A DNA stretch of 64,000 nucleotides, taken from assembly GCA_002317475.1 (NCBI GenBank), contig DCIS01000122.1:7881-71880 (forward strand), written 5' to 3'. This document shows, one piece after another, positions 11,505 to 55,676 of this stretch (its first letter is position 1; every line of letters starts with the position of its first letter). Source of the stretch: Prevotellaceae bacterium UBA1720. Lineage in GTDB: Bacteria; Bacteroidota; Bacteroidia; Bacteroidales; Bacteroidaceae. A model generated the notes under the pieces. The model was not told the origin of the DNA. It made no database searches and saw only the letters and a list, made by a program, of their open reading frames with translations. Both the position numbers and the translations under genes were made by a program.

Positions 11505-11594
11505 AATTGTTAGTTAGTTAGGTTAGATGAGCAAGGCACACCTACGGATTTGCTGAAAGAGAGGGGATAAACTAACCTAACTAACTAACAAATT
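11505..11594. repeat. TTAG-motif inverted pair, unit 1 (about 90-bp hairpin)
   Basis: AATTGTTAGTTAGTTAGGTTAG (11505-11526) and CTAACCTAACTAACTAACAAATT (11572-11594) are reverse complements apart from one missing T. The loop is 45 nt. Confidence 0.9.
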
Positions 11595-11688
11595 ATAATT
11601 TATTTTCTCTATCTATATACTCCCCTGTTCGTCACCCCCATGCATCATCTCTATCTACTTCCCCACACATACACAGAAAAAAAATAGC

Positions 11689-11780
11689 AATTTGTTAGTT
11701 AGTTAGGTTAGTTGTTAGACACAGGGTGGATGCACAAGAGGCACGCGCTCTGAGGACCTAACCTAACTAACTAACAAATT
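11689..11780. repeat. TTAG-motif inverted pair, unit 2 (about 92-bp hairpin)
   Basis: AATTTGTTAGTTAGTTAGGTTAG (11689-11711) and its perfect reverse complement (11758-11780). The loop is about 46 nt and unrelated to the unit 1 loop. Confidence 0.9.
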
Positions 11781-11792
11781 ACACTATACATA

Positions 11793-12794
11793 TCATTTGT
11801 GCCCTACCGTACGCATACCTGCCTCCAGACGGCGGATAAGGTCGCGCTTATCTGTAGAAGGAGAGAATACAAATCCTTCAATTACAGATAGTTGACCATC
11901 GTCCTCCTGCCAAGCATAGCTGACGAAAGGCCCACCCATTGCACCATTGCGCATCTGCCAAAGACCACGTAGTTCGGTAATCATCTTGCCATCCTGAGCA
12001 CGCTTGCTGAGCCATACAACGGGTTTTTCTTGCTCCCAAACCGTCTCAACCCACTGATCGGGACGACTGCCTGGGATGTTTTCAGCCAACACAGAGTCGC
12101 GAAGATGAACCAGGTCCTCGAGGGTTGGGCACTGAGGGTTGAACGATGCAGGAACGCGGTAATACACGAAGTTCAACTGCTTCTCGTTGGTACGCGAACT
12201 AGCCCAGAAACAATCCTTACCCTGCTTCACATAGGCTATCTCCTCGGGCAGGAGTCCGTCAAGACCATATTTCTGCAGGGCCGTACGCACCTTCTTGCTA
12301 TGATGGCGTTTGAAGGTGGATTGTATCATACTGAACTGGTGATCAAGGAGTACCTGGCGAACCTTCTCGGCATTCAGGCGAATATACGTCTGCAGCGAGG
12401 CAATGTCCGGAGCACTCAGCAAAGCCTGGATTTGTGGTTTGGCATCTACATCGTAGGCCAATTGCAACTGAGCATCTGCCTGACCATGGACAATCTTCAC
12501 CAGCAACTTGCTATGCATCTTCAGCATCTCGCCCTTGTAGATAGACAGGGGTACACGCGAGACACGAAAAAATCGTTCAGACTGGTTCAAACCAGGGATA
12601 TCACACTCCAGGATTTCCTTCAACGTATCCTTCAATTCACTGGCCATCACCTCCTTATCCAGTACCAGCAACACCTCACAAGGCTGACCAATGGAACTGG
12701 CTGTGGGCGATTTACGTTCACCCGATGAGGATTTCGTGCATGCCAAGAGACTCAAGGAGGCCACAATGGCTAAAAGGATGCGAAGGTATCTCAT
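11793..12794 (-). CDS. lipoprotein of unknown function (possibly DUF4837 family)
   Basis: Start trimmed to the ATG at 12794 (MRYLRILLAIVASLSLLAC lipobox); the ORF-track start at 12803 is a TTG. The family assignment is from memory only. Confidence 0.55.
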   Translation of the reverse strand: MRYLRILLAIVASLSLLACTKSSSGERKSPTASSIGQPCEVLLVLDKEVMASELKDTLKEILECDIPGLNQSERFFRVSRVPLSIYKGEMLKMHSKLLVKIVHGQADAQLQLAYDVDAKPQIQALLSAPDIASLQTYIRLNAEKVRQVLLDHQFSMIQSTFKRHHSKKVRTALQKYGLDGLLPEEIAYVKQGKDCFWASSRTNEKQLNFVYYRVPASFNPQCPTLEDLVHLRDSVLAENIPGSRPDQWVETVWEQEKPVVWLSKRAQDGKMITELRGLWQMRNGAMGGPFVSYAWQEDDGQLSVIEGFVFSPSTDKRDLIRRLEAGMRTVGHK

Positions 12795-12900
12795 AACAAT
12801 CAAAAAGATTAGTGATCAATATTTACCCAATAGTGTTCAACTTAGTTTGACTTCTTTCCATCTACAATGCAGGTTTCGCACGTTCTTTTTTACCTGTTTT

Positions 12901-13021
12901 CTACGTACAGCCTACGTATAGCCTACGTACAGCCTACGTACAGCCTACGTAAACGTACGGTGTTTGTACGGTGATTGTACGGTGATTGTACGGTGTTTGT
13001 ACGTATATAGTACGATGTCTC
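12901..13021. repeat. 11-bp phased TACG-core tandem array A
   Basis: CTACGTACAGC x4-5, then TACGGTG(A/T)TTG x4, then TACGTATATAG/TACGATGTCTC. TAC starts fall at 12902, 913, 924, 935, 946, 956, 967, 978, 989, 13000, 13011. Confidence 0.9.
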
Positions 13022-13084
13022 AACGTAAAGAACAGCGTCACCACACTTGCGATGCTTTTTATCTATAACTGAAAACTGGCATTT

Positions 13085-16000
13085 TTATTTTGCAGGACTG
13101 ATCCTAAGATTGCTCGTGTAAGCACGGAACTCCGGGGCATAGAGGCACTCGATGGTGGTGATTCCGGCACTATACTGACCGGGGCGCTCCACGAGGATAT
13201 CCTCCTCAAGTACATAGGTTCCCTTAGGCATACGTTCGATGTAATAGTCTGTACTGCTGTCTCTTACGGAGCGATAGAAGGCCAAGCCGTTACTATACGA
13301 ATAGCCCGAATACTTGAGAGTGGGTTCGCAAGCTGCAGGACGTGGAGCACGCAGCATCACGTACTCATAATCACGCTTGGCGGTGATGACGTAGCGCACG
13401 TGAACACGGTCACCCATACGCATCTCTCCACCCTGGTTGGTCTTGGACAGACTGATCTCACGACGGATGTTGATGTCCTGCCAAGTGGCTGAAACACTGT
13501 CTATCTGCTGTTCAAACTCGGCATAGACGGCACCCCAACTCTCACCCTTACTACGCTTCGTGATGGTCAGTTTCTGGGCAGAAGGCACGCTGATCTCGCT
13601 CTTCAGATACCCCTTACGGTTATCAGGCGAGGTGAGACGCTGGGTATGGCCCTCACCCTTTACATCCAATACATCTTGAGCCTCATCCTGCACGTCTTCC
13701 ATACCAGCCGTGAGCAGAGCATAAACGGCATCAACGGTGTTGGCAGGTGTGTCCCAATCCGTGGTACGCTTCTCCATCAAAAGCCATTGACGCAGACCTT
13801 GCCACAATTCGGTAGCCTCTGGACGAGTCTGCTGTACAGCCTCCATAATCTGGGTGTGGATGCGTATCTTGCAGTCAATGCAGGTGAAACTGCCACTGGG
13901 ATAGTCGATGCAGCGACCTGTCTCGGGTGTACCCACCAGGTACTTCTCCACGCCATCCATCAGACGGTTCGTAGCACGGTTCTTGTCCTGCAACTTGAGT
14001 ACGATAGCAGCCTGAGCACGATCCTCAATCTTCCAGTCATCAGCCACCTTGGAGAGTTCCTTCAAGAGGCGTTTCTCATTGCTATCCAACGACTTACCCA
14101 TCAAGGTAACGACATACAGATGGTCGAGGACGGAGGTGTTGATGTACGAATCCTTGTCCAAACGACTACGCAGGTACTTGATGCCCAGGTCTATCATCTC
14201 CTGCAGTTCGGCATCATCCGAATGTGTCAGATTGTACAGGCGAGCCATGCGATACATCACCTCACGTGTCAGGTATGTACTGCCCAAGAAACCAGGGCAC
14301 CATGAGAAGGAACCATCGACATTCTGCAACTGCTTCACCTTATTAAATACGTACGCGCACGACTCCTTCAGCGAATCAGCATCCACCTTGAGCACCTTGT
14401 CCAGATCCTTGACCGTACCACAGAGGTGCTGGGTAAGACTGAGGGCATAGAAAGAGGTGGTGAGGGTGACAACATCCTCATACTTAGGCTGATACAACGA
14501 TGGCAGAGCCTGCAAAGCGCACCAGATGGGATGAGTGGTATACTCCACGGTAAGCTTTCGCTGTGTGGCATCCTTGGGGAAGAGTTGGCTGAGGTCATAG
14601 TTCGTTGTGCCTTGCTTCATCAGCGTGATAGCCTTGCTCTTGGTCAGCACTTCGCGATCAGAGAGAACGGGCAAGAGACGTTGCTCACCATCACTGCAGG
14701 TCTGACCATCAGCCTTCCAACGACAAACCAATGAGCGATACTTATCAACTGCCTCATAATCAAAGAAGAAGACGGTATCTTGCATGGCCTTGAGACTGAA
14801 CTCCACCTTCTTGCGAAGCAGCACCTTCTCGGTCTCTTCGTCCATGATCTCGAAGATAGCCGTGCCATGCTCTGTCACCTCGGGGTCAATATTCTGTATG
14901 GTTGCTGTCAGTACAGCCTTATCACCAACACGTAGGAAACGAGGCAGATACAACTGAGCCATCAAGGATTTCTGTGCCACGATGCTCTCGTCCAGATTGC
15001 CAATCATCAAGTCCTTGGTATGAGCCAAGCCTAGGAAATGCCAACGAGTAAGACTCTCGGGCAGGGTGAAATCAAGGGTCACCTCGCCCTGCTCATTCGT
15101 ACGAAGCTGGGGATAGAAGAAGGCCGTCTCGTTGAAGTTTGTACGCAAGGCAGACCAATCCACGTTTTCATCCTTCTCAGCATTTGCTACGATATCGAGT
15201 CCAGCAATACGGCCCTGCAGCGCATCATCCGTAGAAGTTATGGTCAGTCCCTCAAATTCACGCATTGCAGGAGCCTGTGCCTGTGTCGAATACGAAATCT
15301 CATGCTCGGGTATAGCAAGACTATTGGTATTGGCTTTTTTAAGTACTCTACCAACTGCTCCACGTAAACGCATATTAGTAGAGCCATCCGTGAAATAGAT
15401 GTCCAGACCTTTACGTCCCCCATCGGGACGGAAATAATCGTCATTCAGACGGCTCATCTCCCAAGTGTATAACTTCTTGTACTTCAGATCAAAACTACCA
15501 TAGCACTGAGAGGGATATTCATTGTTTGTCCAGGGTGAACGACCATAATAGTAATAGGAACGTGAGAGCCTGAGGTTCAGACGGTTCTGCACGAAAGCAT
15601 CCAGCGAGGCATCATAGAGCGTAGCCAAGAGGTTGGCTTGAGCAGGAGTGCCGTCAGGACGGGCAATCCGGAGCGACCACTTCTCATGCTGACCAGGTTG
15701 CAGTTTGTCACGGAAGGTAGTCCAGTGCATCTTCAACTGATTGTCAGGTTGTTCCAGTTCCAGACTTCTGCGCTCACTATGCAGCACGCCATCCTTCACG
15801 AAAAAGACTGCCAGACAAGCATCCTTGTCCATACTCTCCTCGTAGGGAATGGTGATCTTAGTCACTTCGTTGGAGAGGTTAACCAACTGATCCTGATAGA
15901 CTTGCTTGTGGGTTGAGACTACATAGTAGAGGGAAACATCCTTCAGCGAAGTGCCCAGCTGAACCTCAATGGGACGCTCCTTCGTGAACTTTCTCGTAGG

Positions 16001-18547: not shown

Positions 18548-18568
18548 AGATTTTGAATTTTGTCGACG

Positions 18569-18576
18569 CAAAGTTA
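18569..18576 (-). promoter_or_regulatory. -7 box TAACTTTG
   Basis: 22 nt upstream of the ATG at 18547; supports the trimmed A2M start. Confidence 0.5.
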
Positions 18577-18605
18577 TCAATTTTTCATCATAACACCTAA
18601 AAAAC

Positions 18606-18658
18606 GAATTCACAAAAAATTCACAAATGCAAAATGGAATTCACAAAAAATTCACAAA
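18606..18658. promoter_or_regulatory. two 22-bp direct repeats GAATTCACAAAAAATTCACAAA
   Basis: Copies at 18606-18627 and 18637-18658, 31 bp apart. Each contains ATTCACAAA twice. They sit between the divergent A2M and 18803 genes. Confidence 0.5.
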
Positions 18659-18746
18659 CGGCATTTATCTTACTGTTTATCAAGCGTTTACAAAAACGAC
18701 AAATAAACTGCTTCTTTTTTACCTTTTCTATATCAAAAAAAAGTAT

Positions 18747-18754
18747 TATCTTTG
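18747..18754 (+). promoter_or_regulatory. -7 box TATCTTTG
   Basis: 49 nt upstream of the ATG at 18803. Confidence 0.45.
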
Positions 18755-18762
18755 TACCTAAA

Positions 18763-18784
18763 TAACCTAACTAACTAACAAATT
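18763..18784. repeat. TTAG-motif copy (R orientation)
   Basis: TAACCTAACTAACTAACAAATT lies between the predicted -7 box (18747-18754) and the ATG at 18803, so it would fall within the 5' UTR. Confidence 0.85.
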
Positions 18785-18802
18785 ACGTACTTTTACCGTA
18801 AA

Positions 18803-20521: not shown

Positions 20522-20523
20522 GT

Positions 20524-22560
20524 ATGATTGTTTGTATTGCCGAGAAACCTTCCGTAGCCAAGGATATTGCCCACGTTTTGGGGGCAAACAGTCAACATGA
20601 CGGATACATGGAAGGTAACGGATACCAAGTAACATGGACCTTTGGCCACTTGTGTGAGTTGAAGGAGCCTCACGAATATTATCCCCAATGGAAACAATGG
20701 AGTCTGGCTCAACTGCCCATGATTCCACCACGCTTTGGCATCAAGCTGAAGAATGACAAGGGTATAGAGAAACAGTTTGCCACCATCCAACGCTTGATGC
20801 AGGCTGCTGATGGTATCATCAACTGCGGTGATGCCGGACAGGAAGGAGAACTTATCCAACGCTGGGTAATGCAAAAAGCTGGTGCGAAGTGTCCCGTGAA
20901 GCGTCTGTGGATATCCTCTCTGACCGAGGAAGCCATTCGTGAAGGTTTTCAGAACCTCAAGGATCAGATTGAGTATCAGAGTCTTTACGAGGCTGGACTC
21001 TCACGTGCTATTGGTGACTGGACCCTGGGCATGAACGCCACACGCCTCTATACCTTGAAATACAGACAAGGACAAGGGCAAGTACTCTCCATTGGTCGTG
21101 TACAGACCCCAACCCTGGCACTGATTGTACGTCGACAACAGGAAATCGAGAACTTCGTACCTCGTCAGTCGTGGTTGCTCTCCACCCTCTATCGTGATGT
21201 CAAATTCTCTGCTATCATGCGTGATGAGGATGCTGAGGCTGAGGAGGCAAGCGAGATAGCCGAAGCTGCCAAGCAAGGCAAGACAATCAAGTCTAAAGGT
21301 CCAATTTACAAGCTGTTGGAATATGCCACAGAGCAAGAGGGAAAGGATACACTTGAGACCATTAAGGACAACCCCTTTACCGTTCTATCCGTTACGAAGA
21401 AGAAAGGCACCGAGACACCTCCACGCCTCTATGACCTGACCAGTTTGCAGGTAGATTGCAACAGAAAGTATGGTTTTAGTGCAGACACAACGCTCAACCT
21501 CATCCAGAGTCTTTACGAGAAGAAGTTCACCACCTACCCCCGTGTGGACACCACGTTCCTTCCTGATGATGTCTATCCCAAATGTCCGCAGATCATGAAC
21601 GGACTGTATGTCACCAAGCAGGCTGGAGTGCCCCTCTATGCCGACTTGGTACGTCCCTTAGGTGGCAAGGCTTTGAAAAAGAGCAAGAAAATCTTCGACA
21701 ACACCAAGGTAACGGACCACCATGCCATCATCCCCACTGGTGTAGCCCCACAGAACCTCACCGACATGGAGTGGCAGGTATTCGACCTCGTGGCTCGTGC
21801 CTTCATCGCTGCCTTCTATCCCGATTGCCTGTTTGAGATTACCACAGTGATTGGCGAGGTGGAGAAGAAGGACGGTAAAACTGAAACCACAGACACACAG
21901 TCCGCCACACCCGGAAAGGTACTGTTCCGTGTGAATGGACGTGTCATCACAGACGAAGGCTGGAAGGTGGTATTCAAGAAGAAAGAGACCACACAGAACG
22001 CTCAGTCCACCCCTGAGAATGAGGATGATAATGCCACTCAGGAGAAGGATGGTGTGCTTCCTGTGTTCGTCAAAGGCGAGTCTGGTCCACATATCCCCTC
22101 TCTCAACGACAAATGGACGACTCCACCCAAGCCCTACACCGAGGCAACCCTGCTACGTGCTATGGAGACGGCAGGACGCTTTGTGGATGATGAAGAACTG
22201 CGTGATGCCATGAAGGAGAATGGCATTGGTCGTCCCTCCACGCGTGCTGCCATTATCGAGACACTGTTCCGTCGTCATTACATACGTCGTGAACGCAAAT
22301 CGATCTGTGCCACACCAACAGGCGTCGAACTGATTGGTCTCATTCGTGAGGAATTATTGAAAAGCGCCGAACTGACGGGCATCTGGGAGAAAAAACTACG
22401 CCAGATTGAGAGTCGCCAATATGATGCTCGCACATTCATCGACGAACTCAAGCAGATGGTCTCGGACATTGTCATTCAAGTTTTGAGCGACAACTCCAAC
22501 CGTCGTGTGCCAACAGAACCAGAAGAGACTAAGGAGAAGGGTAAAAAGAAGAAAGGTTAA
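20524..22560 (+). CDS. topB: DNA topoisomerase III
   Basis: Toprim N-terminus MIVCIAEKPSVAKDIA, GYQVTWTFGHL, and the active-site region TYPRVDT; 678 aa. Confidence 0.9.
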   Translation: MIVCIAEKPSVAKDIAHVLGANSQHDGYMEGNGYQVTWTFGHLCELKEPHEYYPQWKQWSLAQLPMIPPRFGIKLKNDKGIEKQFATIQRLMQAADGIINCGDAGQEGELIQRWVMQKAGAKCPVKRLWISSLTEEAIREGFQNLKDQIEYQSLYEAGLSRAIGDWTLGMNATRLYTLKYRQGQGQVLSIGRVQTPTLALIVRRQQEIENFVPRQSWLLSTLYRDVKFSAIMRDEDAEAEEASEIAEAAKQGKTIKSKGPIYKLLEYATEQEGKDTLETIKDNPFTVLSVTKKKGTETPPRLYDLTSLQVDCNRKYGFSADTTLNLIQSLYEKKFTTYPRVDTTFLPDDVYPKCPQIMNGLYVTKQAGVPLYADLVRPLGGKALKKSKKIFDNTKVTDHHAIIPTGVAPQNLTDMEWQVFDLVARAFIAAFYPDCLFEITTVIGEVEKKDGKTETTDTQSATPGKVLFRVNGRVITDEGWKVVFKKKETTQNAQSTPENEDDNATQEKDGVLPVFVKGESGPHIPSLNDKWTTPPKPYTEATLLRAMETAGRFVDDEELRDAMKENGIGRPSTRAAIIETLFRRHYIRRERKSICATPTGVELIGLIREELLKSAELTGIWEKKLRQIESRQYDARTFIDELKQMVSDIVIQVLSDNSNRRVPTEPEETKEKGKKKKG

Positions 22561-24680: not shown

Positions 24681-24709
24681 TGAATAATGGGGTCTGACCC
24701 CGTTATTCA
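24681..24709. repeat. 29-bp palindromic element, copy 1
   Basis: TGAATAATGGGGTCTGACCCCGTTATTCA lies 7 nt after the ompA-family stop. It is the exact reverse complement of the copy at 26400-26428. Confidence 0.9.
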
Positions 24710-26863: not shown

Positions 26864-26894
26864 AATTTGTTAGTTAGTTAGGTTAGTTAGTTAG
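26864..26894. repeat. TTAG-motif copy (F orientation, extended)
   Basis: AATTTGTTAGTTAGTTAGGTTAGTTAGTTAG lies 37 nt after the rsmF-like stop. Confidence 0.9.
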
Positions 26895-26936
26895 CAAGAG
26901 TACACCTCTTATCAGCGAACACTTCAATATAAAAGA

Positions 26937-26958
26937 CCCGAAGCATCTCTGCCTCGGG
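26937..26958. terminator. hairpin between the convergent rsmF-like and carB genes
   Basis: CCCGAAGCA-tctc-TGCCTCGGG forms a 9-bp stem with 1 mismatch. Flanks are T-rich on both strands. Confidence 0.45.
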
Positions 26959-26973
26959 CCTTTATATTATGGA

Positions 26974-27027
26974 TAGGTCTTTCCTAGGTTGTTCTAGGGA
27001 TTCCTAGGAGTTTCTAGGTTATCCTAG
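26974..27027. repeat. 10-bp phased CTAG array D
   Basis: (A/C)TAG cores at 26974, 984, 994, 27004, 014, 024. The array runs up to the carB stop codon (27030). Confidence 0.85.
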
Positions 27028-30541: not shown

Positions 30542-30623
30542 TGAATAACGGGGTCAGACCCCATTGTTCATTTTCGTGTGCATGAATAACGGGGTCAGAC
30601 CCCATTGTTCATTTTCGCGTGCA
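30542..30623. repeat. 29-bp palindromic element, copies 3 and 4, as two tandem 41-bp units
   Basis: TGAATAACGGGGTCAGACCCCATTGTTCATTTTCG(T/C)GTGCA occurs at 30542-30582 and 30583-30623. Confidence 0.9.
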
Positions 30624-34154: not shown

Positions 34155-34299
34155 GTAGGAAATTCTAGGTGGTCCTAGGAAATTCTAGGGAATCCTAGAG
34201 AATCCTAGGTAATCCTAGGTGGTCCTAGGTGGTCCTAGGTGGTCCTAGGTAGTCCTAGGTAATCCTAGGGAAATCCTAGAGAATCCTATATAATCCTAA
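34155..34299. repeat. 10-bp phased CTAG array E (about 15 units)
   Basis: CTAG-type cores at 34155, 165, 175 ... 265, then 276, 286, 296. The core units are GGTCCTAGGT and AATCCTAGGT. Confidence 0.95.
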
Positions 34300-34300: not shown

Positions 34301-34330
34301 AAGGGTACTCACGAGAGTGTGGGTACCCTT
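34301..34330. repeat. GGGTACCC-core hairpin module
   Basis: AAGGGTACTCACGAGAGTGTGGGTACCCTT is related to AAAGGGTACTCACACGGGTACCCTTT at 43289-43314. Confidence 0.7.
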
Positions 34331-34350: not shown

Positions 34351-34374
34351 AATTTGTTAGTTAGTTAGGTTAGG
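34351..34374. repeat. TTAG-motif copy (F orientation)
   Basis: AATTTGTTAGTTAGTTAGGTTAGG. Confidence 0.9.
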
Positions 34375-37438: not shown

Positions 37439-37446
37439 CAAAGCTA
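37439..37446 (-). promoter_or_regulatory. -7 box TAGCTTTG
   Basis: 36 nt upstream of the ECF sigma ATG at 37403. Confidence 0.45.
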
Positions 37447-37491: not shown

Positions 37492-37514
37492 AATTTGTTA
37501 GTTAGTTAGGTTAG
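37492..37514. repeat. TTAG-motif copy (F orientation)
   Basis: AATTTGTTAGTTAGTTAGGTTAG lies 45 nt beyond the sigma-gene -7 box. Confidence 0.9.
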
Positions 37515-38969: not shown

Positions 38970-38977
38970 CAAAGGTA
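38970..38977 (-). promoter_or_regulatory. -7 box TACCTTTG
   Basis: 27 nt upstream of the ATG at 38943. Confidence 0.45.
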
Positions 38978-39022: not shown

Positions 39023-39045
39023 AATTTGTTAGTTAGTTAGGTTAG
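39023..39045. repeat. TTAG-motif copy (F orientation), left arm of an inverted pair
   Basis: AATTTGTTAGTTAGTTAGGTTAG pairs with 39184-39206. Confidence 0.9.
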
Positions 39046-39060: not shown

Positions 39061-39160
39061 ACAACGTACATTGCACGTACAGACACCGTATAACCTACGT
39101 ATGGACACCGTAAGTGTACGTAGGCTGTACGTAGGCTGTACGTAGGCTGTACGTATAATC
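39061..39160. repeat. 11-bp phased TACG-core array B
   Basis: Contains GTACGTAGGCT x3 (TACG at 39117, 128, 139, 150). This is the reverse complement of the CCTACGTACAG unit of array A. GACACCGTA is the reverse complement of the TACGGTGTC unit in arrays A and C. Confidence 0.9.
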
Positions 39161-39181: not shown

Positions 39182-39208
39182 ACCTAACCTAACTAACTAA
39201 CAAATTAC
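39182..39208. repeat. TTAG-motif copy (R orientation)
   Basis: ACCTAACCTAACTAACTAACAAATTAC is identical over 27 nt to 43403-43429 and to the copy ending at 11782. Confidence 0.9.
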
Positions 39209-39289: not shown

Positions 39290-39312
39290 AATTTGTTAGT
39301 TGTTAGTGTTAG
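39290..39312. repeat. degenerate TTAG-motif copy (F orientation)
   Basis: AATTTGTTAGTTGTTAGTGTTAG lies 10 nt upstream of the -7 box at 39323. Confidence 0.7.
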
Positions 39313-43288: not shown

Positions 43289-43320
43289 AAAGGGTACTCA
43301 CACGGGTACCCTTTTGTTTT
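43289..43320 (+). terminator. rho-independent terminator after the primase-helicase gene
   Basis: AAAGGGTAC-tcacacgg-GTACCCTTT followed by TGTTTT. Confidence 0.65.
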
Positions 43321-43328
43321 AGGAAGAC

Positions 43329-43401
43329 CTAGAAAGCCTAGGAAAGCCTAGGAAAGCCTAGGAAGTCCTAGATAATCCTAGATAATCCTAGATAATCCTA
43401 A
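43329..43401. repeat. 10-bp phased CTAG array F
   Basis: GAAAGCCTAG x3, then GATAATCCTA x3. CTAG cores fall at 43329, 338, 348, 358, 368, 378, 388, 398. The array runs directly into the TTAG motif. Confidence 0.9.
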
Positions 43402-43402: not shown

Positions 43403-43429
43403 ACCTAACCTAACTAACTAACAAATTAC
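43403..43429. repeat. TTAG-motif copy (R orientation)
   Basis: ACCTAACCTAACTAACTAACAAATTAC lies 7 nt from the gntR-family stop. Confidence 0.9.
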
Positions 43430-43435
43430 GGTTTT

Positions 43436-44878: not shown

Positions 44879-44892
44879 CGTATGTGGTTGTT

Positions 44893-45720
44893 TTAATTGT
44901 TTGCTAATAGACTTTTGAACATTTCGCTTTGCTCCATGCAAGCCACAAAGAGCATCTTGATATCCACGGGCATCTCCTCACCCAGCGCGTTTCGAACGAT
45001 ACCCACTCTGCCATTCACCGTCTCACGGCTGTAGAGAGGCTCATCACCATCCTCCAACTGACCAAAGCAGAGCTTCTCACCAATCTCAGCCATGGTGGCA
45101 GACAGCACTACCTGCTTGCTCTTCAGAATAACGAGTGCATCGAGCAGATCCTCCACATCGTCTACCAAATGGGTGGAGATAATGATGGTGCGATCCTCGT
45201 TGGCATGTGCGGCAACAAGTTGGCGAAAGACCATCTTCGAGGTGATATCCAGACCGTTGGTGGGTTCGTCCATCAACAGATAGCGCGTGTTGCAAGCCAG
45301 AGCCAGTGCAATCATCGCCTTACGGGCATTACCCTGTGAAAGCGAACTGATCTTTGCCTCGGCATCTACTCCCAGTTTCTCTGTAATCTCCTCAAAGTAC
45401 GCCATATCAAACTTGGGATACAACTGTGCAAAGTAGTTTGCAACCTTGCGTGCACTCTCCTTCTTGTAGGCACACTCATCGGTCATCAGATAGAGATCCT
45501 GCAGCAAAATCAGCGACTTCTCGTGCGAGGCCATGCCGTCAATCTCAGACGTTCCTTCTCCCTTGAGCAGACCAGCAATGATGCCCATCAGCGTCGTTTT
45601 GCCCACTCCATTCTCGCCCAGCAAACCATAGATGTGCCCTTCTGGCAACTGCAGACTAACGTCCTCCAATACCTTGCGTGAGGGTCTGTAACTGAATTGT
45701 AAATTAGTGATTGAAATCAT
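44893..45720 (-). CDS. ABC transporter ATP-binding protein
   Basis: GENGVGKTT Walker A, LSQGNARK signature, LLMDEPTNGLD Walker B. Confidence 0.92.
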   Translation of the reverse strand: MISITNLQFSYRPSRKVLEDVSLQLPEGHIYGLLGENGVGKTTLMGIIAGLLKGEGTSEIDGMASHEKSLILLQDLYLMTDECAYKKESARKVANYFAQLYPKFDMAYFEEITEKLGVDAEAKISSLSQGNARKAMIALALACNTRYLLMDEPTNGLDITSKMVFRQLVAAHANEDRTIIISTHLVDDVEDLLDALVILKSKQVVLSATMAEIGEKLCFGQLEDGDEPLYSRETVNGRVGIVRNALGEEMPVDIKMLFVACMEQSEMFKSLLANN

Positions 45721-45797
45721 ATCCTTATGTGTTTAAACTTTCAACGGAAACATCCGCAATTACTACTATTTAACTGTACTATTTCAATAGAACAGTG

Positions 45798-45805
45798 CAA
45801 AGGTA
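45798..45805 (-). promoter_or_regulatory. -7 box TACCTTTG
   Basis: 78 nt upstream of the ABC ATPase ATG at 45720. Confidence 0.4.
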
Positions 45806-46023
45806 TGTCTTTTCATATTATCCACCAAGAAAACTAGCAGAAATTATTCCTCGTTAACATAATTTTAACACTCTCAAGCTTCATCTTCCCGCTTACACCT
45901 TATTATATTAAGGGCGCTGTCGAGCAAAAAGATATAGTTTTCATCATTTTTAGGTTACAAGTTTGGTTATCAGCACATTTATTCGTAATTTTACACCACG
46001 AACGAACTAATACAACGAATAAC

Positions 46024-48600: not shown

Positions 48601-48608
48601 GGAAAAGC

Positions 48609-48723
48609 CTAGGAATACCTAGGAAAGACCTAGGAAGGTCTAGGAAGGTCTAGGAATACCTAGGAACACCTAGAAAATCCTAGCAAATCCTAGTAAACCC
48701 TAGTAAACCCTAGAGAATCCTAG
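48609..48723. repeat. 10-bp phased CTAG array G (12 units)
   Basis: CTAG cores at 48609, 619, 630, 640 ... 720. The array begins 9 nt after the GH51 stop and precedes the terminator. Confidence 0.95.
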
Positions 48724-48736
48724 ACACAAACAAAAA

Positions 48737-48760
48737 CAGCCCTTGCAAATGCAGGGGCTG
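48737..48760. terminator. bidirectional rho-independent terminator
   Basis: CAGCCCTTGC-aaat-GCAGGGGCTG has T-runs on both strands (CTCTTTTA on plus, TTTTTGTTTG on minus). Confidence 0.7.
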
Positions 48761-48795
48761 CTCTTTTATATATATACTATAATGTACGCGCGAGA

Positions 48796-49368
48796 TTACT
48801 GTGCTGTGGTAGTAGCAGTACCCGAGAAGGTTGCCTGATACTTTCTGCCACCTACATAGAAGTCGATGTAGCTGAGGCTGAGAGTCTTCTCATTGACAGT
48901 ACCCAGCAAGCAAGCCATATCCATCTCTGCAGCAGTACCATTAACGGTGCAGGTACCACCAGTGTAGTAAGCCTCTTTGTCGATACCCACCTTACCAGTA
49001 CCGGGGTTGTAGTTGGTGTTGAATGAGAAGTTGCTGATGGTGTTGTTGCCAACCTTGAATTCACCCAAGGTAACGGTTACAACAGAGTCTGCTGCTGAGC
49101 AGATAGCACCAGCGGTAATAGAAGCAGTAGCAGATGCCTTGTCGTCCTCGTAATAAACACCCTCGGCAGAATCATACTTGTAAGAATCTACGTTCAGTGT
49201 ACCGGTGTAAGCATACTGTGTACCACCATTGTTGGTAAGCATATTACCGATAACCTCAGTCACGATAGGGAGCAGGGTATTCAGTATATCACTATCACAA
49301 CTGGTTGTTGTCAGACCCATGCCAGCAAGACCCAGCACTACACACACTTTCTTAAAATACTTTTTCAT
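48796..49368 (-). CDS. lipoprotein, unknown function
   Basis: MKKYFKKVCVVLGLAGMGLTTTSC lipobox; 190 aa, Thr/Gly-rich. Confidence 0.7.
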   Translation of the reverse strand: MKKYFKKVCVVLGLAGMGLTTTSCDSDILNTLLPIVTEVIGNMLTNNGGTQYAYTGTLNVDSYKYDSAEGVYYEDDKASATASITAGAICSAADSVVTVTLGEFKVGNNTISNFSFNTNYNPGTGKVGIDKEAYYTGGTCTVNGTAAEMDMACLLGTVNEKTLSLSYIDFYVGGRKYQATFSGTATTTAQ

Positions 49369-49403
49369 CTTTGTATATTATTTAGTTGTTGTTGTTTTCG
49401 CTG

Positions 49404-49411
49404 CAAAGTTA
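49404..49411 (-). promoter_or_regulatory. -7 box TAACTTTG
   Basis: 36 nt upstream of the ATG at 49368. Confidence 0.5.
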
Positions 49412-49480
49412 GTCATTTTCACCTTTCCATGCAAAAAGCATCTACGTTTTTTTACTTTTATTCAGCGTATAGCAATAAAA

Positions 49481-49508
49481 GAGGGCACGAAGTCGCCTTC
49501 GTACCCTC
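49481..49508 (-). terminator. rho-independent terminator of the mutAB operon
   Basis: The minus strand reads GAGGGTACGAAG-gcga-CTTCGTGCCCTC followed by TTTTATTGC. Confidence 0.65.
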
Positions 49509-49532
49509 ATGAATTATCGTCTTGATTTCTGC

Positions 49533-49566
49533 AACCTAACCTAACTAACTAACTAACTAACAAATT
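49533..49566. repeat. TTAG-motif copy (R orientation, extended)
   Basis: AACCTAACCTAACTAACTAACTAACTAACAAATT lies between the mutB stop (49613) and its terminator, so it would be in the 3' UTR. Confidence 0.9.
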
Positions 49567-49612
49567 GCAGTATTTTAGGGAAGAATTGCAGATGGTCAAA
49601 TCGAGGAAATGC

Positions 49613-51781
49613 TTACTCCTTGTCGAGCAGGATGTTCATGATCTCGCAAGCAGCCTTTGCTACGCTGGTACCAGGACCGAAGATAGCAGCTACGCCAGCC
49701 TGATAGAGGAAGTCGTAGTCCTGAGCGGGAATTACACCACCAGCGATAACCATGATGTCCTCACGACCGAGCTTCTTCAACTCGTCGATAAGTTGAGGAA
49801 TCAGAGTCTTATGACCAGCAGCCAGAGAAGAAGCACCAACTACGTTGACATCGTTCTCAACTGCCTGACGAGCAGCCTCAGCGGGAGTCTGGAACAAGGG
49901 ACCCATATCCACGTCGAAACCACAGTCTGCATAACCTGTTGCTACAACCTTGGCACCACGGTCGTGACCGTCCTGACCCATCTTAGCAACCATGATACGA
50001 GGACGACGGCCTTCAGCCTTTGCAAACTCCTCGGTCAACTGACAAGCCTTCTCGAAGTCGCTGTCATTCTTTGATTCACTGCTATACACGCCTGAAATAG
50101 TTCTGATTACTGCCTTGTAACGACCTACGATAGCCTCGCAAGCGTCACTGATCTCACCCAAAGTAGCACGGTGACCAGCTGCGATTACAGCGAGGTCGAG
50201 CAGGTTGTTAGCGCTCTTCTTGCCCTCGTTGAACTCGCGTACACACTCGGTGATAGCCACCAAGTCCTTCTTCACCTGTGCCTCATCACGGTTAGCCTTG
50301 AGCTCCTTGAGAGCAGCCTCCTGCTGGAGACGTACAGCGGTGTTGTCGATCTCGAGGATATCGATGGGATCCTCGTGCTCGAGACGATACTTGTTGGTAC
50401 CAACGATGGTCTGAACACCTGAGTCGATACGAGCCTGGGTACGAGCAGCTGCCTCCTCGATACGCATCTTGGGCAGACCTGTCTCGATAGCCTTAGCCAT
50501 ACCACCGAGCTTCTCGATCTCCTGGATGTGAGACCATGCCTTCTCGTAAAGCTCCTGAGTCAACTTCTCAACATAGTAAGAACCTGCCCATGGATCGATA
50601 TGCTTGCAGACCTGAGTCTCGTTCTGGATGTAGATCTGGGTGTTTCGTGCGATACGAGCAGAGAAGTCAGTAGGAAGTGCAATAGCCTCGTCGAGTGCGT
50701 TGGTGTGGAGTGACTGGGTGTGACCCAGGACTGCAGCCATAGCCTCGATACAGGTACGACCTACATTGTTGAAGGGATCCTGCTCGGTCAGAGACCAACC
50801 TGAGGTCTGAGAGTGGGTACGCAGAGCCATTGACTTGGGGTTCTTAGCACCGAAGCTCTTCACGATCTTTGCCCACAACAGACGACCAGCACGCATCTTG
50901 GCAATCTCCATGAAGTGGTTCATACCGATAGCCCAGAAGAATGACAGACGGGGTGCGAAAGCATCTACGTCGATACCTGCGTTGATACCTGCACGGAGGT
51001 AATCCATACCATCAGCCAAGGTGTAAGCCAACTCGATGTCAGCAGTAGCACCTGCCTCCTGCATGTGGTAACCAGAGATAGAGATGCTGTTGAACTTAGG
51101 CATCTTCTGGCTGGTGTACTCGAAGATATCAGCAATGATCTTCATTGAGAATGCAGGTGGATAGATATAGGTGTTACGTACCATGAACTCCTTCAAGATA
51201 TCGTTCTGGATAGTACCAGCCATCTCCTCGAGCTTAGCGCCCTGCTCAAGACCTGCGTTGATGTAGAATGCCAATACGGGCAATACACCACCGTTCATGG
51301 TCATAGACACAGACATCTTGTTCAAGGGAATACCTGCGAAGAGCACCTTCATGTTCTCGAGTGAGCAAATAGACACACCGGCCTTACCTACATCACCAAC
51401 TACACGCTGGTTGTCGGGGTCATAACCACGATGGGTAGGGAGGTCGAATGCAACTGACAGACCCTTCTGACCTGAAGCCAGGTTACGACGGTAGAATGCG
51501 TTAGACTCCTCAGCAGTAGAGAAACCAGCATACTGACGGATGGTCCATGGACGGAAGGGGTACATCATGCTATAGGGGCCACGAAGGAAGGGAGGGATAC
51601 CAGCAGCAAAGTCAAGGTGCTCCATGCCTTCCAGGTCCTCTTTGGTATAAACGGGCTGAACATCAATCTGCTCGGGAGTTCTCCAGTTGGCAGTAATACC
51701 AGCCTCTTTTTGCCATGCCTGGCCATTCTTTGCCTCAATACCGGCAAAGATATCTATCTGATTAAATTGTTTACGTGCCAT
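49613..51781 (-). CDS. mutB: methylmalonyl-CoA mutase large (alpha) subunit
   Basis: 722 aa: [30 protein letters not shown], and a C-terminal B12-binding domain ([14 protein letters not shown]). Confidence 0.96.
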
Positions 51782-51783
51782 AA

Positions 51784-53628
51784 TTAGATTCCGAGTTTAG
51801 AATTATACTCCTGAAGAGTACCAAGCTGATTAGACTTAACATTAATATAATTCTCGATACCAGCAGCCTTCAGATCCTCTGTACAAGCGGGAGCACCAGC
51901 AACAACGAACATTGCACGGCCATTCAGGTACTTGTAAGCGGGGATAGCGTACTCAGCATACTCGTCATCACTTGAACAGATGACAACGATGTCTGCACCT
52001 GCCTCCAGAGCCTTGTCAACACCCTCCTCAACAGTGGGGAAGCCGAGGTTGTCGATTACCTTGTAACCAGCAGCAGCCAGGAAGTTGCAAGAGAACTGAG
52101 CACGAGCCTGACGCATAGCCAGGTTACCAATGGTCAGCATGAAGGCAACGGGTACCTTAGCAGCCTTCTCGGTAGTGAGACGCAAGTTCTCGAAGTCGCT
52201 TGCCAGACGAGCGGGCTTCAGAGCAGCAATCTCGCCAGCCTCGCCACAGCAGCAGCAAGGAGCAACGGGCTGCTTGCCTTCGCTCTTCTCGGTGAAGTTG
52301 GGGAACTGGTTGGTACCCAACAGGAACTCACGACGCTTGCCAGCATTAGCATGACGAGCAGCGTTGGTATCGTTTACTACGGTCTGGATGTTACCAGCGA
52401 GAGCCTCCTTCAGGAAGCCACCCTTCTCCTCAACATCGAGGAAGAGCTTCCAAGCCTGCTCAGCGAGAGCCTTAGTCAGAGTCTCCAGGAAGTATGAACC
52501 ACCAGCAGCATCAACGATGCGACCAAAATGGCACTCCTCCTTCAACAGCAACTGCTGGTTGCGAGCAATACGCTCTGCAAACTCTGTGGGAGCCTCATAG
52601 GGCTCGTCGAAGGGAGTAACAACGATACTCTCAACGCCACCCAAAGCAGCAGACATAGCCTCAGTCTGGCTACGGAGCATATTTACATAGCTGTCGAATA
52701 CGGTCTGGTTATAGGTAGTGGTGATGGCACAAACGTGCATCTTAGCACTCTCCTTGCAAGCGGTGTACTGGCTAACAATCTGTGCCCACAACATACGTGC
52801 AGCACGAACCTTAGCAATCTCCATGAAGTAAACACCGTTGATACCCAGGTTGAACTTGATGTTCTGAGCAGCCAACTCGGGAGCTACACCAGCCTCGGTC
52901 AATGCAGCCATGTACTCATTACCCCAAGCCAAAGCGTAACCCAGGTCCTGATAGCTGTATGCACCAGCATTGGTCAAAGTGTAAGCGTTAACAGCAACTG
53001 CACGGAACTTGGGATACTCAGCAAGTACCTCAACCAACTCCTTAGCGGTAGCGATAAGTTCTGAACGATCCTTACCCTTGCTGATAATCTTCTCGATGGG
53101 GTCGAAATTGATGCTACCTGCAATAGCCTCCTTCTTGTAACCCTTCTCCTGGAAGTAAGCCACGAGGATCTTTGCCAACTCAAGGCTCTTGCACTGGCAA
53201 GTCTTGAAGTTCAGCTCCACGCACTCAGCATAGATGCCCTCTAAAAGGGTTGCAATGTACTCTGCGCTAACCTTCTCAGCAGGAATAACGAAACCCAGAC
53301 CGTCAACACCCTTGTTCAGGATGTCCAAAGCCTTCTCGTTAGCTGCCTTGGGGCAATCGCACACGATGTCCTGACGGACATACCACTCGTTGTCAGCGGT
53401 CTTATTGCCGCGAACATAGGGGAACTCGCCTGGAAGGGCGTTAACGATAGCCAGATTCTCAACATCCTCCTTGCGGTAGAATGGTTCCATGCTGAAGCCT
53501 TCGTTGGTTCTCCAAACCATTTTCTTCTGATAGTCTGCACCCTTGAGGTCTACCTCAATCTTGTCGCGCCATTCCTGGGCTGAGGGAGCAGTAAAGTCAG
53601 AAAAAAGTCTCTCTTTACTATCTGCCAT
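51784..53628 (-). CDS. mutA: methylmalonyl-CoA mutase small (beta) subunit
   Basis: 614 aa, mutase-like but lacking the DxHxxG cobalamin motif. It lies directly upstream of mutB. Confidence 0.88.
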
Positions 53629-53699
53629 AATTTAATAAAAATTATATAATGTGATTCTCTCTATCTTTTGGCTAGGGGGCTCATCGCCCAAAAAGCATG

Positions 53700-53707
53700 C
53701 AAAGTTA
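53700..53707 (-). promoter_or_regulatory. -7 box TAACTTTG
   Basis: 72 nt upstream of the mutA ATG at 53628. Confidence 0.45.
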
Positions 53708-53844
53708 CTCAATTTTCCTCTCACAGCAAAACTTTTTTCACAAAAAGGATGCGTCAAGAACCGCATTGACACCTTCTTTTTGCAAATTGAACAAGATAAT
53801 TCAAAATTATCCCTTATACACCCCTTGATTTCACATTTTTTCAC

Positions 53845-53852
53845 TAATTTTG
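53845..53852 (+). promoter_or_regulatory. -7 box TAATTTTG
   Basis: 81 nt upstream of the ATG at 53933. Confidence 0.4.
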
Positions 53853-53932
53853 TGCAACAATTGTGCGCTACCATCCCCACACGGATACAGCCCAACAAAA
53901 AAAAGAGAAACAATCATACAAACATATTCTAT

Positions 53933-55645
53933 ATGGAATGGCTTAAGACTTTATTCACAGACACAGACGGGGTAGGACACATCGTGCTGCTCTATGCCCT
54001 TGTCATTGCTGTAGGTATTTTCCTGGGGCGCCTGAAGATTGGCGGCAAGAAGAACGGCATAGCCCTGGGTGTAACCTTCGTGCTGTTTGCCGGCATCGTA
54101 GCCGGACATTTCGGCTTCACAGGCACAACCAACGTGCTTACCTTTATACAGGATTTCGGATTGATCCTATTCGTATACTGTATCGGCCTACAAGTAGGTC
54201 CTGGTTTCGTAAGCAGTTTCAAGGAGGGTGGCATCAAGATGAATATGATCGCCATTGGTATCGTAACCTTGAACGTAATCTTCTGTATCAGCCTTTATTT
54301 CCTTATATTTTATAAGGGAGGAAGCATTACTGGCGAGAACAGCAGCAATCTGGCCATGATGGTGGGTGTGCTTTGTGGTGCCATCACCAATACACCTGGT
54401 CTGGGTGCTGCCAACGAGGCTTGTAACACCATTTTCGGTGACGCAGCTCCCACCATTGCCAACGGCTATGCTTGTGCCTATCCCCTTGGCGTTGTGGGCA
54501 TTATCCTTGCAACTATTGCTATCCGTTACATCACCGGTACTTCGCTGAAGAAGGAGCAGGAAGCCATAGAGCAGGAAAAAGCAGCCAACCCTCATGCTAC
54601 ACCTCATCGTATGACCGTGGCAGCACGTAATCCTTACCTTTTAGGCAAGAGCATCCTGCAAGTACGTCAGTTCCTGGGTCGTGACTTTGTATGTAGCCGT
54701 ATTTTACAGAACGGCCATGTCAGCATCCCCAACCGTGACACGGTTCTCGGCGAGGGAGACGAGATGTACATCACCTGCGCTGAGGCTGACGCTGAGGCCA
54801 TCAAGGCCTTTATCGGCCCCGAGGAACAGGTGGAATGGGAGGAACAGGATGTGCCCATGGTTAGCAAGCACGTCTTAGTGACACAGCCCGCGGTAAATGG
54901 AAAGACACTGGGCGAGTTACACTTCAGCAGCGTATATGGTGTGAATGTGACCCGTATCCGTCGTGGAGATTTGAACCTCTTTGCAGAAAGCAACCTTCGT
55001 CTGCAGATTGGTGACCGTCTCGTAGTCGTTGGACCTGAGGATGCTGTTGATCGCATAGCAGCCAAGATGGGCAACAGTGTAAAGAAACTCGATCACCCCA
55101 ACCTGGCAGCCATCTTCATTGGTGTGTTTGTAGGTATCATCTTCGGTGCAATACCTATTGCTCTGCCAGGTGTTCCTACTCCTGTCAAATTGGGTTTGGC
55201 AGGTGGACCTCTGTGTATCGCCATTGCTATTGGTGCATACGGATACAAGTTCAAGATCAACGCTTACACCACCACCAGTGCCAACCTCATGCTACGTGAG
55301 ATGGGTCTGGCTCTCTTCCTGGCCAGCGTGGGTATCAAGGCTGGTGCCAACTTCGTCAATACGGTAGTCGAGGGTGATGGACTGACCTACGTATGGTGTG
55401 GTTTCATCATCACCGTACTTCCTATCCTCATCATGGGATTCATTGCCAAGAAATTCCTCAAACTGAACTACTGCACCCTGATGGGCCTCATCGCGGGTTC
55501 TACTACCGACCCACCTGCACTGGCCTTTGCTAACCAAACCGCTGGTAATGAAGCACCTGCAGTAGGCTATTCGACGGTATACCCCTTGAGCATGTTCCTA
55601 CGTATCCTCACAGCACAACTCATCATCCTACTGCTCTGCTCATAA
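53933..55645 (+). CDS. YidE/YbjL (AAE, aspartate:alanine exchanger) family transporter with two TrkA-C domains
   Basis: Start trimmed to the ATG at 53933 ([10 protein letters not shown]). It has a duplicated TM domain flanking RCK_C-like segments ([24 protein letters not shown] / [23 protein letters not shown]). Confidence 0.85.
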
Positions 55646-55655
55646 GAGGAGGAAG

Positions 55656-55676
55656 CTAACTAACTAACTAACAAAT
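55656..55676. repeat. TTAG-motif copy (R orientation, variant)
   Basis: CTAACTAACTAACTAACAAAT lies 11 nt after the transporter stop and 28 nt before the dgt ATG. Confidence 0.8.

Follow-up and report, generated by a model that had tools for sequence, protein, structure and literature searches.

The dispersed repeats of bacteria that come closest to the element described here belong to two groups. REP/BIME and REPIN-RAYT elements are 20-40 nt long, numerous and extragenic; they occur in both orientations and as inverted doublets, are found at gene 3' ends or between the genes of an operon, are lineage-specific and take part in mosaic intergenic regions. Each REP unit is an imperfect palindrome, whose hairpin is read by a RAYT of the Y1/HUH type, and the REPIN doublet replicates as a unit. 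The second group consists of miniature inverted-repeat transposable elements (MITEs), which measure 100-155 bp, have terminal inverted repeats around a conserved interior as well as target-site duplications (2-10 bp), and can hand terminator or promoter parts to adjoining genes; Correia/NEMIS in Neisseria and RUP in Streptococcus pneumoniae are intergenic, and their inverted ends give long hairpins. Besides, RUP and the 155-bp Correia element contain stops in all six frames (PMC2229807). In this study, we analysed a 64,000-nt stretch from Prevotellaceae bacterium UBA1720 (contig DCIS01000122.1, positions 7,881 to 71,880), called the window below, which carries 14 copies of a (TTAG)n repeat whose closest functional likeness, by analogy, is to REP/BIME elements and Correia-type MITEs. 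It is best read as a REP- or MITE-like yet structurally distinct repeat and not as a categorically new system. Tentatively, with a confidence that falls just short of even, we regard it as a natural, clade-restricted, non-palindromic interspersed repeat of ~40 nt that spread by copy-and-paste and was co-opted as gene-boundary punctuation.

In the window, TTAGTTAGTTAG with at most one mismatch has 29 (overlapping) matches, compared with 0.12 expected from dinucleotide-preserving shuffles, and the 23-mer AATTTGTTAGTTAGTTAGGTTAG with at most three mismatches has 12, compared with 0 expected. A search of the 64-kb window with a profile derived from the copies returned exactly 14 sites, namely 12 strong ones, a weaker one at 55656 and a degenerate one at 39290 (Table 1). 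Nine of the 14 copies contain the exact 23-mer, and the strands are evenly split, with seven copies in the forward orientation (F, plus strand) and seven in the reverse orientation (R, minus strand). The initial annotation of this DNA had counted the same 14 copies, seven in each direction, and its coordinates agree with ours within 1-3 nt.

TAG occurs in three frames of one strand and TAA in three frames of the other in 13 of the 14 copies. Six-frame closure had been claimed for every copy, and one copy fails; where it exists, closure is automatic, because three or more TTAG units are enough to supply the stops. To locate the copies relative to genes, we used a gene map made of metagenome gene calls on near-identical contigs, open reading frames (ORFs) and Pfam matches. 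It turned out that all 14 copies are intergenic, as had been stated before, and that no copy lies within a coding sequence of the window, a result that is partly tautological, since a sequence with stops in six frames cannot lie inside a coding sequence. Intergenic regions of at least 50 bp sum to 5,774 nt (9% of the window), and between 11 and 56 kb at least one copy is present in 9 of the ~13 intergenic regions of at least 180 bp. No copies were found in the first 11.5 kb or the last 8 kb of the window, or in another 12 kb outside it; the portion of the genome that was read amounts to ~76 kb, plus a handful of related contigs.

The repeated unit is longer than its core. When the copies were aligned in a single orientation, conservation reached ~17 nt 5' of AATTTG and comprised an A6-8 tract and then T(A)n(G/C)T, and the 3' end was ragged, with GGTTAG followed by KT and in some copies then by TG-TTAG. 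The unit therefore measures ~40 nt rather than 23, and can be written as 5'-A6-8 T(A)n(G/C)T - AATTTG - (TTAG)3-5 - GTTAG(KT)-3'. The A-tract that the initial annotation had noticed ahead of AATTTG is thus a real flank, which with the YGT next to the core holds information out to about -17. Most copies have three TTAG, while 55656 has four, 49536 has five and 26864 has three plus two more beyond GTTAG. Folding of single units (45-49 nt) on both strands gave 0 to -1.6 kcal/mol with z from -0.4 to +1.1, and revealed no palindrome or hairpin.

Several known signals were compared with the unit and rejected. Its TAATTTG is one base short of TAnnTTTG, the -7 box of Bacteroidota sigma-A promoters, and the canonical boxes sit elsewhere. 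The C-rich strand has almost no YC dimers, which speaks against a Rho utilisation site, and the IHF consensus is not matched. An orientation linked to replication is not seen either, as the GC skew is monotonic through the window and the orientations are mixed. The A-tract end points towards the nearer gene in 5 of 7 single copies, which is not significant. No copy is matched by an Rfam family, whether gathering thresholds are applied or E values up to 1 are admitted.

Table 1. Copies of the (TTAG)n repeat, the -7 boxes standing in register with three of them, and the rsmF-carB unit in the window and two relatives (positions count from the first nucleotide of the window).
Feature	Positions	Strand	Description
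Copy 1	11504-11526	+	GAATTGTTAGTTAGTTAGGTTAG; pair 1 with 11572-11594; on the minus strand, 45 nt and then the DUF1573 -7 box
Copy 2	11572-11594	-	Exact 23-mer; partner in pair 1, a 91-bp hairpin unit
Copy 3	11689-11711	+	Exact 23-mer; pair 2; on the minus strand, T8 lies 4 nt (GCTA) past the predicted stem
Copy 4	11758-11780	-	Exact 23-mer; 12 nt past the DUF4837 stop; supplies the 5' arm of the pair-2 hairpin when read on the strand of the gene
Copy 5	18762-18784	-	Ends ...GGTTAT; on the plus strand, in the BNR_4 5' untranslated region, from the TATCTTTG box (18747-18754) to ATG 18803
Copy 6	26864-26894	+	Extended, ...GGTTAGTTAGTTAG; 36 nt past the rsmF stop; upstream of the bidirectional hairpin 26935-26960
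Copy 7	34351-34373	+	Exact 23-mer; flanked by the GGGTACCC hairpin (34301-34330) and a 39-bp tandem repeat starting GTTGTTAG
Copy 8	37492-37514	+	Exact 23-mer; on the minus strand, T-tracts, then at 45 nt the TAGCTTTG box of the ECF sigma gene
Copy 9	39023-39045	+	Exact 23-mer; pair-3 arm (184 bp); on the minus strand, 45 nt and then the TACCTTTG box of the 165-aa gene
Copy 10	39184-39206	-	Exact 23-mer; other pair-3 arm; 11-bp TACGTA-type arrays between the arms
Copy 11	39290-39312	+	Degenerate, AATTTGTTAGTTGTTAGTGTTAG; ends 10 nt ahead of the TACCTTTG box of the 244-aa gene
Copy 12	43405-43427	-	Exact 23-mer; 8 nt past the GntR stop; then 10-bp CCTAGG arrays and hairpin 43289-43314
Copy 13	49536-49566	-	Five TTAG units; starts 46 nt past the mutB stop; ends 27 nt before terminator hairpin 49481-49508
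Copy 14	55656-55677	-	GATTTG(TTAG)4 C; within the 59 nt that separate the Asp-Al_Ex permease gene from the HD gene
-7 box TAATTTTG	11451-11458	-	46 nt from copy 1
-7 box TAGCTTTG	37439-37446	-	46 nt from copy 8
-7 box TACCTTTG	38970-38977	-	46 nt from copy 9
rsmF-carB unit, window			AATTTG TTAG TTAG TTAG GTTAG TTAG TTAG
rsmF-carB unit, L099			GATTTG TTAG TTG TTAG TTAG
rsmF-carB unit, L007			AATTTG TTAG GTTG TTAG TTAG TTAG

The repeat is of natural origin. The same DNA, with the copies included, was found at 99.7-100% identity in JGI 3300001598, JGI 3300020112, Logan SRR1221442 and Logan SRR5323905, the first of which is an Asian elephant faeces metagenome (PMC4160196). The reference genomes nearest by CarB are uncultured Bacteroidales of horses and other herbivores, such as Candidatus Minthosoma caballi. 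Besides, several contigs of the same organism end in or beside copies (L097, for example, stops at ...GTAATTTG), which points to a genuine repeat, because assemblers break in this way at such repeats. The possibility of an artificial cassette, raised in the initial annotation, is excluded by the independent assemblies together with diverged copies at orthologous sites in at least two related species. A BLAST search of PLSDB plasmids with the 42-nt unit gave marginal matches in Arsenophonus and Borreliella and no sign of a vector or cassette, and a literature search with the sequence string of the motif returned an unrelated peanut paper only.

The distribution is narrow. The exact 21-mer has no match in 185,579 GTDB representative genomes, and the exact pattern has none in viral contigs and four in JGI metagenome contigs, all of them unrelated and due to chance in low-GC contigs or to microsatellites. 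The 10-mer AATTTGTTAG occurs 12 times in the window, compared with once in 80 related carB loci (~1.5 Mb). When the relatives were searched with an all-variant profile, copies appeared only in loci L007, L096, L099 and L101, which represent two or three related species; the repeat is accordingly restricted to a clade and is not confined to a single assembly. Even there the density is unequal, with one copy in 23 kb of L007 compared with six in the equivalent stretch of the window.

Comparison with these relatives bears on the retention, gain and turnover of copies. The copy between rsmF and carB stands at an orthologous site in the window, in L099 (~88-92% nucleotide identity) and in L007 (~75-85%), and all three have the common order of stop, motif, hairpin, CCTAGG array and carB stop. 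At the junction of the permease and HD genes, the 59-nt spacer of the window consists of (CTAA)4CAAATCC and a T-rich flank, and a 47-nt spacer in L101 holds an orthologous decayed copy, CTAACTAACAACCAACAAATCC. The outgroup L102 lacks this spacer, and the stop of the one gene overlaps the start of the next as TAATG. Comparison of the empty L102 sequence CATAATGAAC with the filled CATAA[insert]ATGAA limits the target duplication to at most 1 nt at this single, old site. The simplest reading is that a unit of ~47 nt, including the T-rich flank, was inserted between two genes that had been translationally coupled. The BNR_4 leader shows the same polarity: L100 has an identical TATCTTTG box followed by 29 nt and ATG, without the unit, and the window has 48 nt there, with the unit in place of GATACCC. 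Around DUF4837, L096 (87% identical in the protein) has no pair 3' of the gene and carries a variant unit directly before the ATG. The 5' flank of this unit, ATAAAACCGT, matches the flank of window copy 43427 at a different locus, so that one flank subtype is found at non-orthologous sites (ATAAAACCGTTAATTG upstream of DUF4837 in L096 and ATAAAAAACCGTAATTTG after GntR in the window). This argues for copying of the ~40-nt unit as a whole.

With these data, the repeat can be set against the known families. The earlier description as REP/BIME- or MITE-like is right as an analogy, since the repeat is dispersed, extragenic and lineage-specific and forms inverted pairs and mosaic regions, but it does not extend to membership, as there is no palindrome, the interiors are unrelated and the duplication is at most 1 nt. 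All the traits of REP/BIME and REPIN-RAYT elements listed at the outset are shared by the (TTAG)n repeat, with the difference that the REP unit is a palindrome, whereas the (TTAG)n unit is unstructured. While the REPIN replicates as a doublet, the spacers of (TTAG)n doublets (45, 46 and 138 nt) have nothing in common, so what replicates here is not the doublet. Among the motif-flanking and orphan ORFs scanned in the ~76 kb read, none matched a RAYT. MITEs likewise resemble it in being intergenic, in forming long hairpins and in what they can give to adjoining genes; however, the conserved (TTAG)n unit corresponds to one arm of ~40 nt and the interiors differ. In the absence of a hairpin, terminal inverted repeats and a target duplication, the usual REP-RAYT and DDE-MITE models are excluded as tested.

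The same comparisons could be explained by a selfish or neutral interspersed repeat without any host role, with positions that are merely tolerated, AT-rich spots by stops, terminators and promoters. Orthologous copies drift about as much as their neighbours do (for example, (TTAG)4 at window 55656 against TTGGTTGTTAGTTAG in L101), the order of units in the rsmF copy differs among three species, and there is turnover of copies around DUF4837. A precedent for six-frame stops combined with an intergenic location, with no proven function, is given by RUP and the 155-bp Correia element (PMC2229807). On the other hand, the rsmF-carB copy has been kept in L007 together with its 5' flank AAAATAGTAATTTGTTAG, although the flanking genes are just ~75% identical, and an exact distance to three independent promoters, described in the following paragraph, is hard to obtain without selection. 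We consider a purely neutral repeat unlikely. Some copies appear to be under positional constraint, as is suggested by the promoter register and by the fact that L007 has kept the rsmF copy with its flank.

Three copies face a gene start from further away in the R (C/A-rich) orientation, and in all three a TAnnTTTG box starts exactly 46 nt off the end of the core. These are the copies at 11504, 37492 and 39023, upstream of DUF1573, the ECF sigma gene and the 165-aa ORF respectively. Their 45-nt spacers are alike in the first ~21 nt, which are the unit's own T-tracts, and are unrelated in the remainder, where a -33-like TTTG, TTTC or CTTG comes next after the T-tracts. The resulting 5' untranslated regions are 19-28 nt long, which is typical. 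A canonical TAnnTTTG upstream predicts promoters for 12 genes in the window, of which three have the 46-nt register. By our own rough estimate, with distances free over ~100 nt, three identical distances would arise by chance at ~1e-4. If transcription starts ~7 nt past the -7 box, as assumed for all promoter positions here, the T-tract falls at ~-40 to -59, where an UP element would stand, and the core occupies ~-60 to -82. The initial annotation had placed three copies about 45 nt beyond -7 boxes; the number stands, but the distance is exactly 46 nt and the copies lie upstream of the boxes. Its suggestion of an insulator fits the positions and gains support from the register at three promoters, short of a demonstration. 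The T-tract of a promoter-facing unit may serve as an UP-like or insulating upstream element, and the invariant distance to TAnnTTTG would follow from such an action of the flank.

The fixed register would also suit a binding site. The unit could be recognised by a dedicated clade-specific DNA-binding protein, acting as a roadblock or insulator or as a class-I-type activator, with the identity of the copies kept by selection. The 23-nt core is near-invariant in 9-12 copies, it lies at ~-60 to -82 relative to three promoters, L007 and the species of the window have a conserved consensus, and the neighbouring A-tract could bend DNA. However, the genes alongside are functionally unrelated, many copies are at gene 3' ends or within 5' untranslated regions, the number of TTAG ranges from 3 to 5, and the density is very unequal among relatives (1 copy in 23 kb of L007 against 6 in the window's equivalent). 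The flank subtypes common to non-orthologous sites point to duplication, and no candidate protein was found. As an account of the whole repeat, a binding site seems to us distinctly unlikely.

The claim of inverted pairs was correct, and the number is three. The copies at 11504/11594, 11689/11780 and 39023/39206 form head-to-head F...R pairs with spacers of 45, 46 and 138 nt, which are dissimilar in sequence, and the other copies are single (seven, or eight when the degenerate 39290 is counted). Stems of 20-25 bp are predicted for the pairs, at -31 to -46.5 kcal/mol with z from -4.6 to -9.4, and the predicted fold of pair 3 reaches -80 kcal/mol with z -8.8. Since the F...R layout puts the A/T tracts outside the stem, either strand can have a T-rich stretch past the hairpin. 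The clearest case is the minus strand of pair 2 (-41.6 kcal/mol), where U8 starts 4 nt (GCUA) beyond the predicted stem. The 5' arm of this pair starts 12 nt past the DUF4837 stop on the gene's strand, and pair 2 thus stands where the terminator of that gene would be. No U-run follows the hairpin on the plus strand of pair 2, and pair 1 has U5 ~8 nt past the core stem on the minus strand and an interrupted T-rich stretch on the plus strand. F...R units would thus be expected to pair into a stem of 20-25 bp with T-rich flanks outside, so that the minus strand of pair 2 would resemble an intrinsic terminator with a long loop; in the other arrangements the tail is weaker or missing. The geometry is non-canonical for a terminator, with A/U-rich stems and loops of 45-138 nt, and none of the pairs was called by the terminator scan, which requires loops of 3-8 nt. 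An invertible promoter between the arms of pair 3 was considered and rejected, as there is no TAnnTTTG or TTTG inside on either strand.

Copies are also found close to the ends and starts of genes. Four copies follow stops (DUF4837, rsmF, GntR and mutB) by 8-46 nt, with the A-tract gene-ward and a terminator hairpin downstream; among them, the mutB copy sits between the stop codon and the terminator hairpin, as initially annotated. Two copies precede starts in the C/A-rich orientation, at 18 nt from BNR_4 and 27 nt from the HD phosphohydrolase gene, and the former (18762) indeed lies between the TATCTTTG box and the ATG of the 18803 gene, where it had been placed. A unit just past a stop or just before a start may free ribosomes, in any frame, before they reach a terminator hairpin or another start codon. 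When it lies in the C/A-rich orientation, it would also provide an unstructured, G-free leader, suiting initiation without a Shine-Dalgarno sequence in Bacteroidota.

These positions might alternatively reflect a role at the RNA level, in which (UUAG)n in 3' untranslated regions would act as small-RNA seeds or platforms for RRM-type proteins and (CUAA)n in 5' untranslated regions would be their targets. Several F copies have a terminator hairpin 27-140 nt downstream, a layout similar to that of the Bacteroides small RNAs FopS and GibS, with a single-stranded 5' seed and then a terminator (PMC11697453). R copies lie 18-27 nt ahead of two start codons, and F and R transcripts would be perfectly complementary over 23 nt. 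Nevertheless, the F copies have no preceding canonical TAnnTTTG promoter, their own TAATTTG being one base short, and the orientation relative to transcription is mixed. Three copies are upstream of promoters, in DNA that is probably untranscribed in the relevant sense, and Rfam is matchless even at the relaxed threshold. We regard a mainly RNA-based role as very unlikely.

Some further repeats of other lineages are comparable in part. Neisserial dRS3 elements, together with RS mosaics, are 20-bp conserved repeats that punctuate variable intergenic segments; dRS3 has short inverted ends and is a target of phage integration. Mycobacterial MIRUs are units of 40-100 bp inserted in operons, between genes whose stop and start codons would overlap without them; they are oriented with transcription, and they contain small coupling ORFs. 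The placement of MIRUs is like that of the (TTAG)n unit at the permease/HD junction, while the sequences of both families are unrelated to (TTAG)n, which closes all frames. The TAACTGA heptamers are almost always intergenic direct repeats in Beggiatoaceae, Cyanobacteria and five Bacteroidetes; they are stop-rich, often lie no more than a few nt before starts, have a patchy distribution over lineages, and have been suggested to act post-transcriptionally (PMC4679880). (CTAA)n contains TAACTAA, one mismatch from TAACTGA. However, the heptamers form pure tandem arrays of variable length without unique flanks, whereas (TTAG)n has a fixed (TTAG)3 core in conserved unique flanks (A-tract, AATTTG, GGTTAG), and core and flanks together are dispersed in either orientation.

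Uptake signals form another class of short dispersed motifs, and the repeat could in principle be a DNA uptake sequence, like DUS of Neisseria or USS of Haemophilus, built up by biased uptake in natural transformation. DUS and Pasteurellaceae USS are non-palindromic with species dialects and AT-rich flanks, and their inverted pairs act as terminators; in the same way, the (TTAG)n motif is short, non-palindromic and clade-specific, shows small dialect differences between species, has an AT-rich flank and forms inverted pairs at gene ends as in Neisseria. As weak context, a ComEC-like gene (PF03772) lies in L089 (12140-13384), ~1.3 kb left of window position 1, but ComEC homologues are widespread in bacteria and not diagnostic. 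DUS/USS occur about once per kb and also inside genes. In contrast, (TTAG)n has 14 copies in 64 kb (~1 per 4.6 kb in the window, 4-5 times less dense), none in coding DNA and none in ~30 kb of flanks, and its 23-40 nt are far above the known length of uptake signals. Besides, it arrives at new sites as whole units with variable flank subtypes, even between formerly overlapping genes, which means insertion and not point mutations. Hence an uptake sequence is highly improbable.

Equally far from likely, in our judgement, is a function as a target or att site, used by integrating elements or in site-specific recombination, for which dRS3 and REP-targeting insertion sequences are precedents. The copies at 39184-39206 and 43405-43427, which have the same direction and agree in 33 of 35 nt when the flank is included, bracket a 4.2-kb block that contains a DUF3987/BT4734-N primase-like gene and two orphan genes, which may be an integrated element or a coincidence, and L102, a relative, has a mobile island of similar VapE type. 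Where 44 kb contain 14 copies, though, chance is expected to place two direct ones 4 kb from each other, the Pfam and NCBIfam scans gave no integrase or recombinase gene in the block, and the origin of the copies would be left unexplained. The L102 island itself (1078-5527) measures 4.4 kb, includes a VapE-like/DUF5906 gene, DUF6078 and orphans, and lies between mutA and the Asp-Al_Ex permease gene, a gap that is 22 nt in the window.

To return to the copy-and-paste reading, an enzyme would place units at gene boundaries, with a target duplication of none or at most 1 nt, and the unit would survive only between genes because of its TAG in three frames of one strand and TAA in three frames of the other. 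Mobility by a dedicated enzyme, as well as all four roles considered above (paired hairpin, upstream element, ribosome release and open leader), we infer from the sequence. Several points weigh against this reading. When motif-flanking and orphan ORFs were scanned with Pfam and NCBIfam, no transposase, RAYT, integrase or reverse transcriptase came up, and we know of no mechanism that moves a 40-nt unit without a hairpin or terminal inverted repeats. The nine identical cores could mean strong selection for a binding site instead of recent spread. The polarity of insertion rests on one outgroup per site at two sites, single copies are oriented both ways relative to transcription, and pair 3 is between divergent genes, where a terminator is not obviously needed. 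Finally, a comparison of the strains available, all of which are at least 99.7% identical, gave no presence/absence polymorphism of copies.

A bolder possibility, which we hold to be improbable, is a dedicated clade-specific punctuation system of Bacteroidota that do without Shine-Dalgarno sequences, in which a non-DDE, hairpin-independent enzyme would install and homogenise the units and a cognate DNA- or RNA-binding protein would read them. Such a protein may insulate promoters, halt read-through transcription and free ribosomes in every frame. If true, this would be a regulatory module that is mobile and propagates itself, without a described counterpart so far.

The intergenic regions also contain other repeats. 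Tandem arrays, with a 10-bp period and CCTAGG or an 11-bp period and TACGTA or GTAC, are located at or just past stops (12901-13018, 26974-27027, 34156-34298, 39115-39155, 43320-43400, 48608-48724 and 57049-57154). In the 10-bp arrays, the period combined with the palindromic CTAG likewise gives TAG in all six frames. The relatives keep this class of array with changes in type and length; for example, L099 has a longer CCTAGG array at the carB stop, and at a place where TACGTA arrays stand in the window, L096 carries one of the CCTAGG kind. Strong hairpin terminators were found at 34301-34330 (+), 43289-43314 (-), 48737-48760 (+) and 49481-49508 (-); three of the four are built on GGGTAC...GTACCC stems. 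All of these hairpins lie centrally in convergent intergenic regions and probably act bidirectionally. A second dispersed repeat, GAATAACGGGGTCAGACCCCATTGTTCA with a GGGGTCAGACCCC hairpin, forms two tandem 41-bp copies after carB (30542-30623) and is also present singly at 24689-24701, where the 679-aa gene and thyA adjoin. At 18607-18658, 4.9 units of an 11-bp repeat, AATTCACAAAA, span the predicted start of the 1842-aa ORF.

In the relatives, L096 has another inverted pair past the DUF4837 stop (1190-1335; ACAGTTAACAATAAG ... CTTATTGTTAACTGT, ~110 nt apart), where the window has two (TTAG)n pairs. The related species represented by L012 carries a MITE-looking element with TTTTGACACAGATTACGCAGATTTCACAGAT arms and a conserved interior (72-220 and 22179-22300), a different element, which shows the lineage-specific nature of repeat families in the clade. 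Between the permease stop and the motif, positions 55646-55655 of the window are a Shine-Dalgarno-like GAGGAGGAAG, where L101 has just G (a 9-nt difference), in an organism that should not use Shine-Dalgarno sequences.

Small dispersed intergenic repeats have been much studied in Proteobacteria and Firmicutes, but hardly in Bacteroidales, the dominant gut order. A non-palindromic unit without target duplication suits neither the REP-RAYT nor the MITE model, and thus raises the question of how it is copied. The 46-nt register offers a concrete hypothesis on the upstream architecture of promoters in Bacteroidota, where UP-like elements and insulators are poorly defined. Besides, the unit between the permease and HD genes parts two genes that overlap in a relative, giving an example of repeats rewiring operons, and the (TTAG)n repeats break the short-read metagenome assemblies of the clade.

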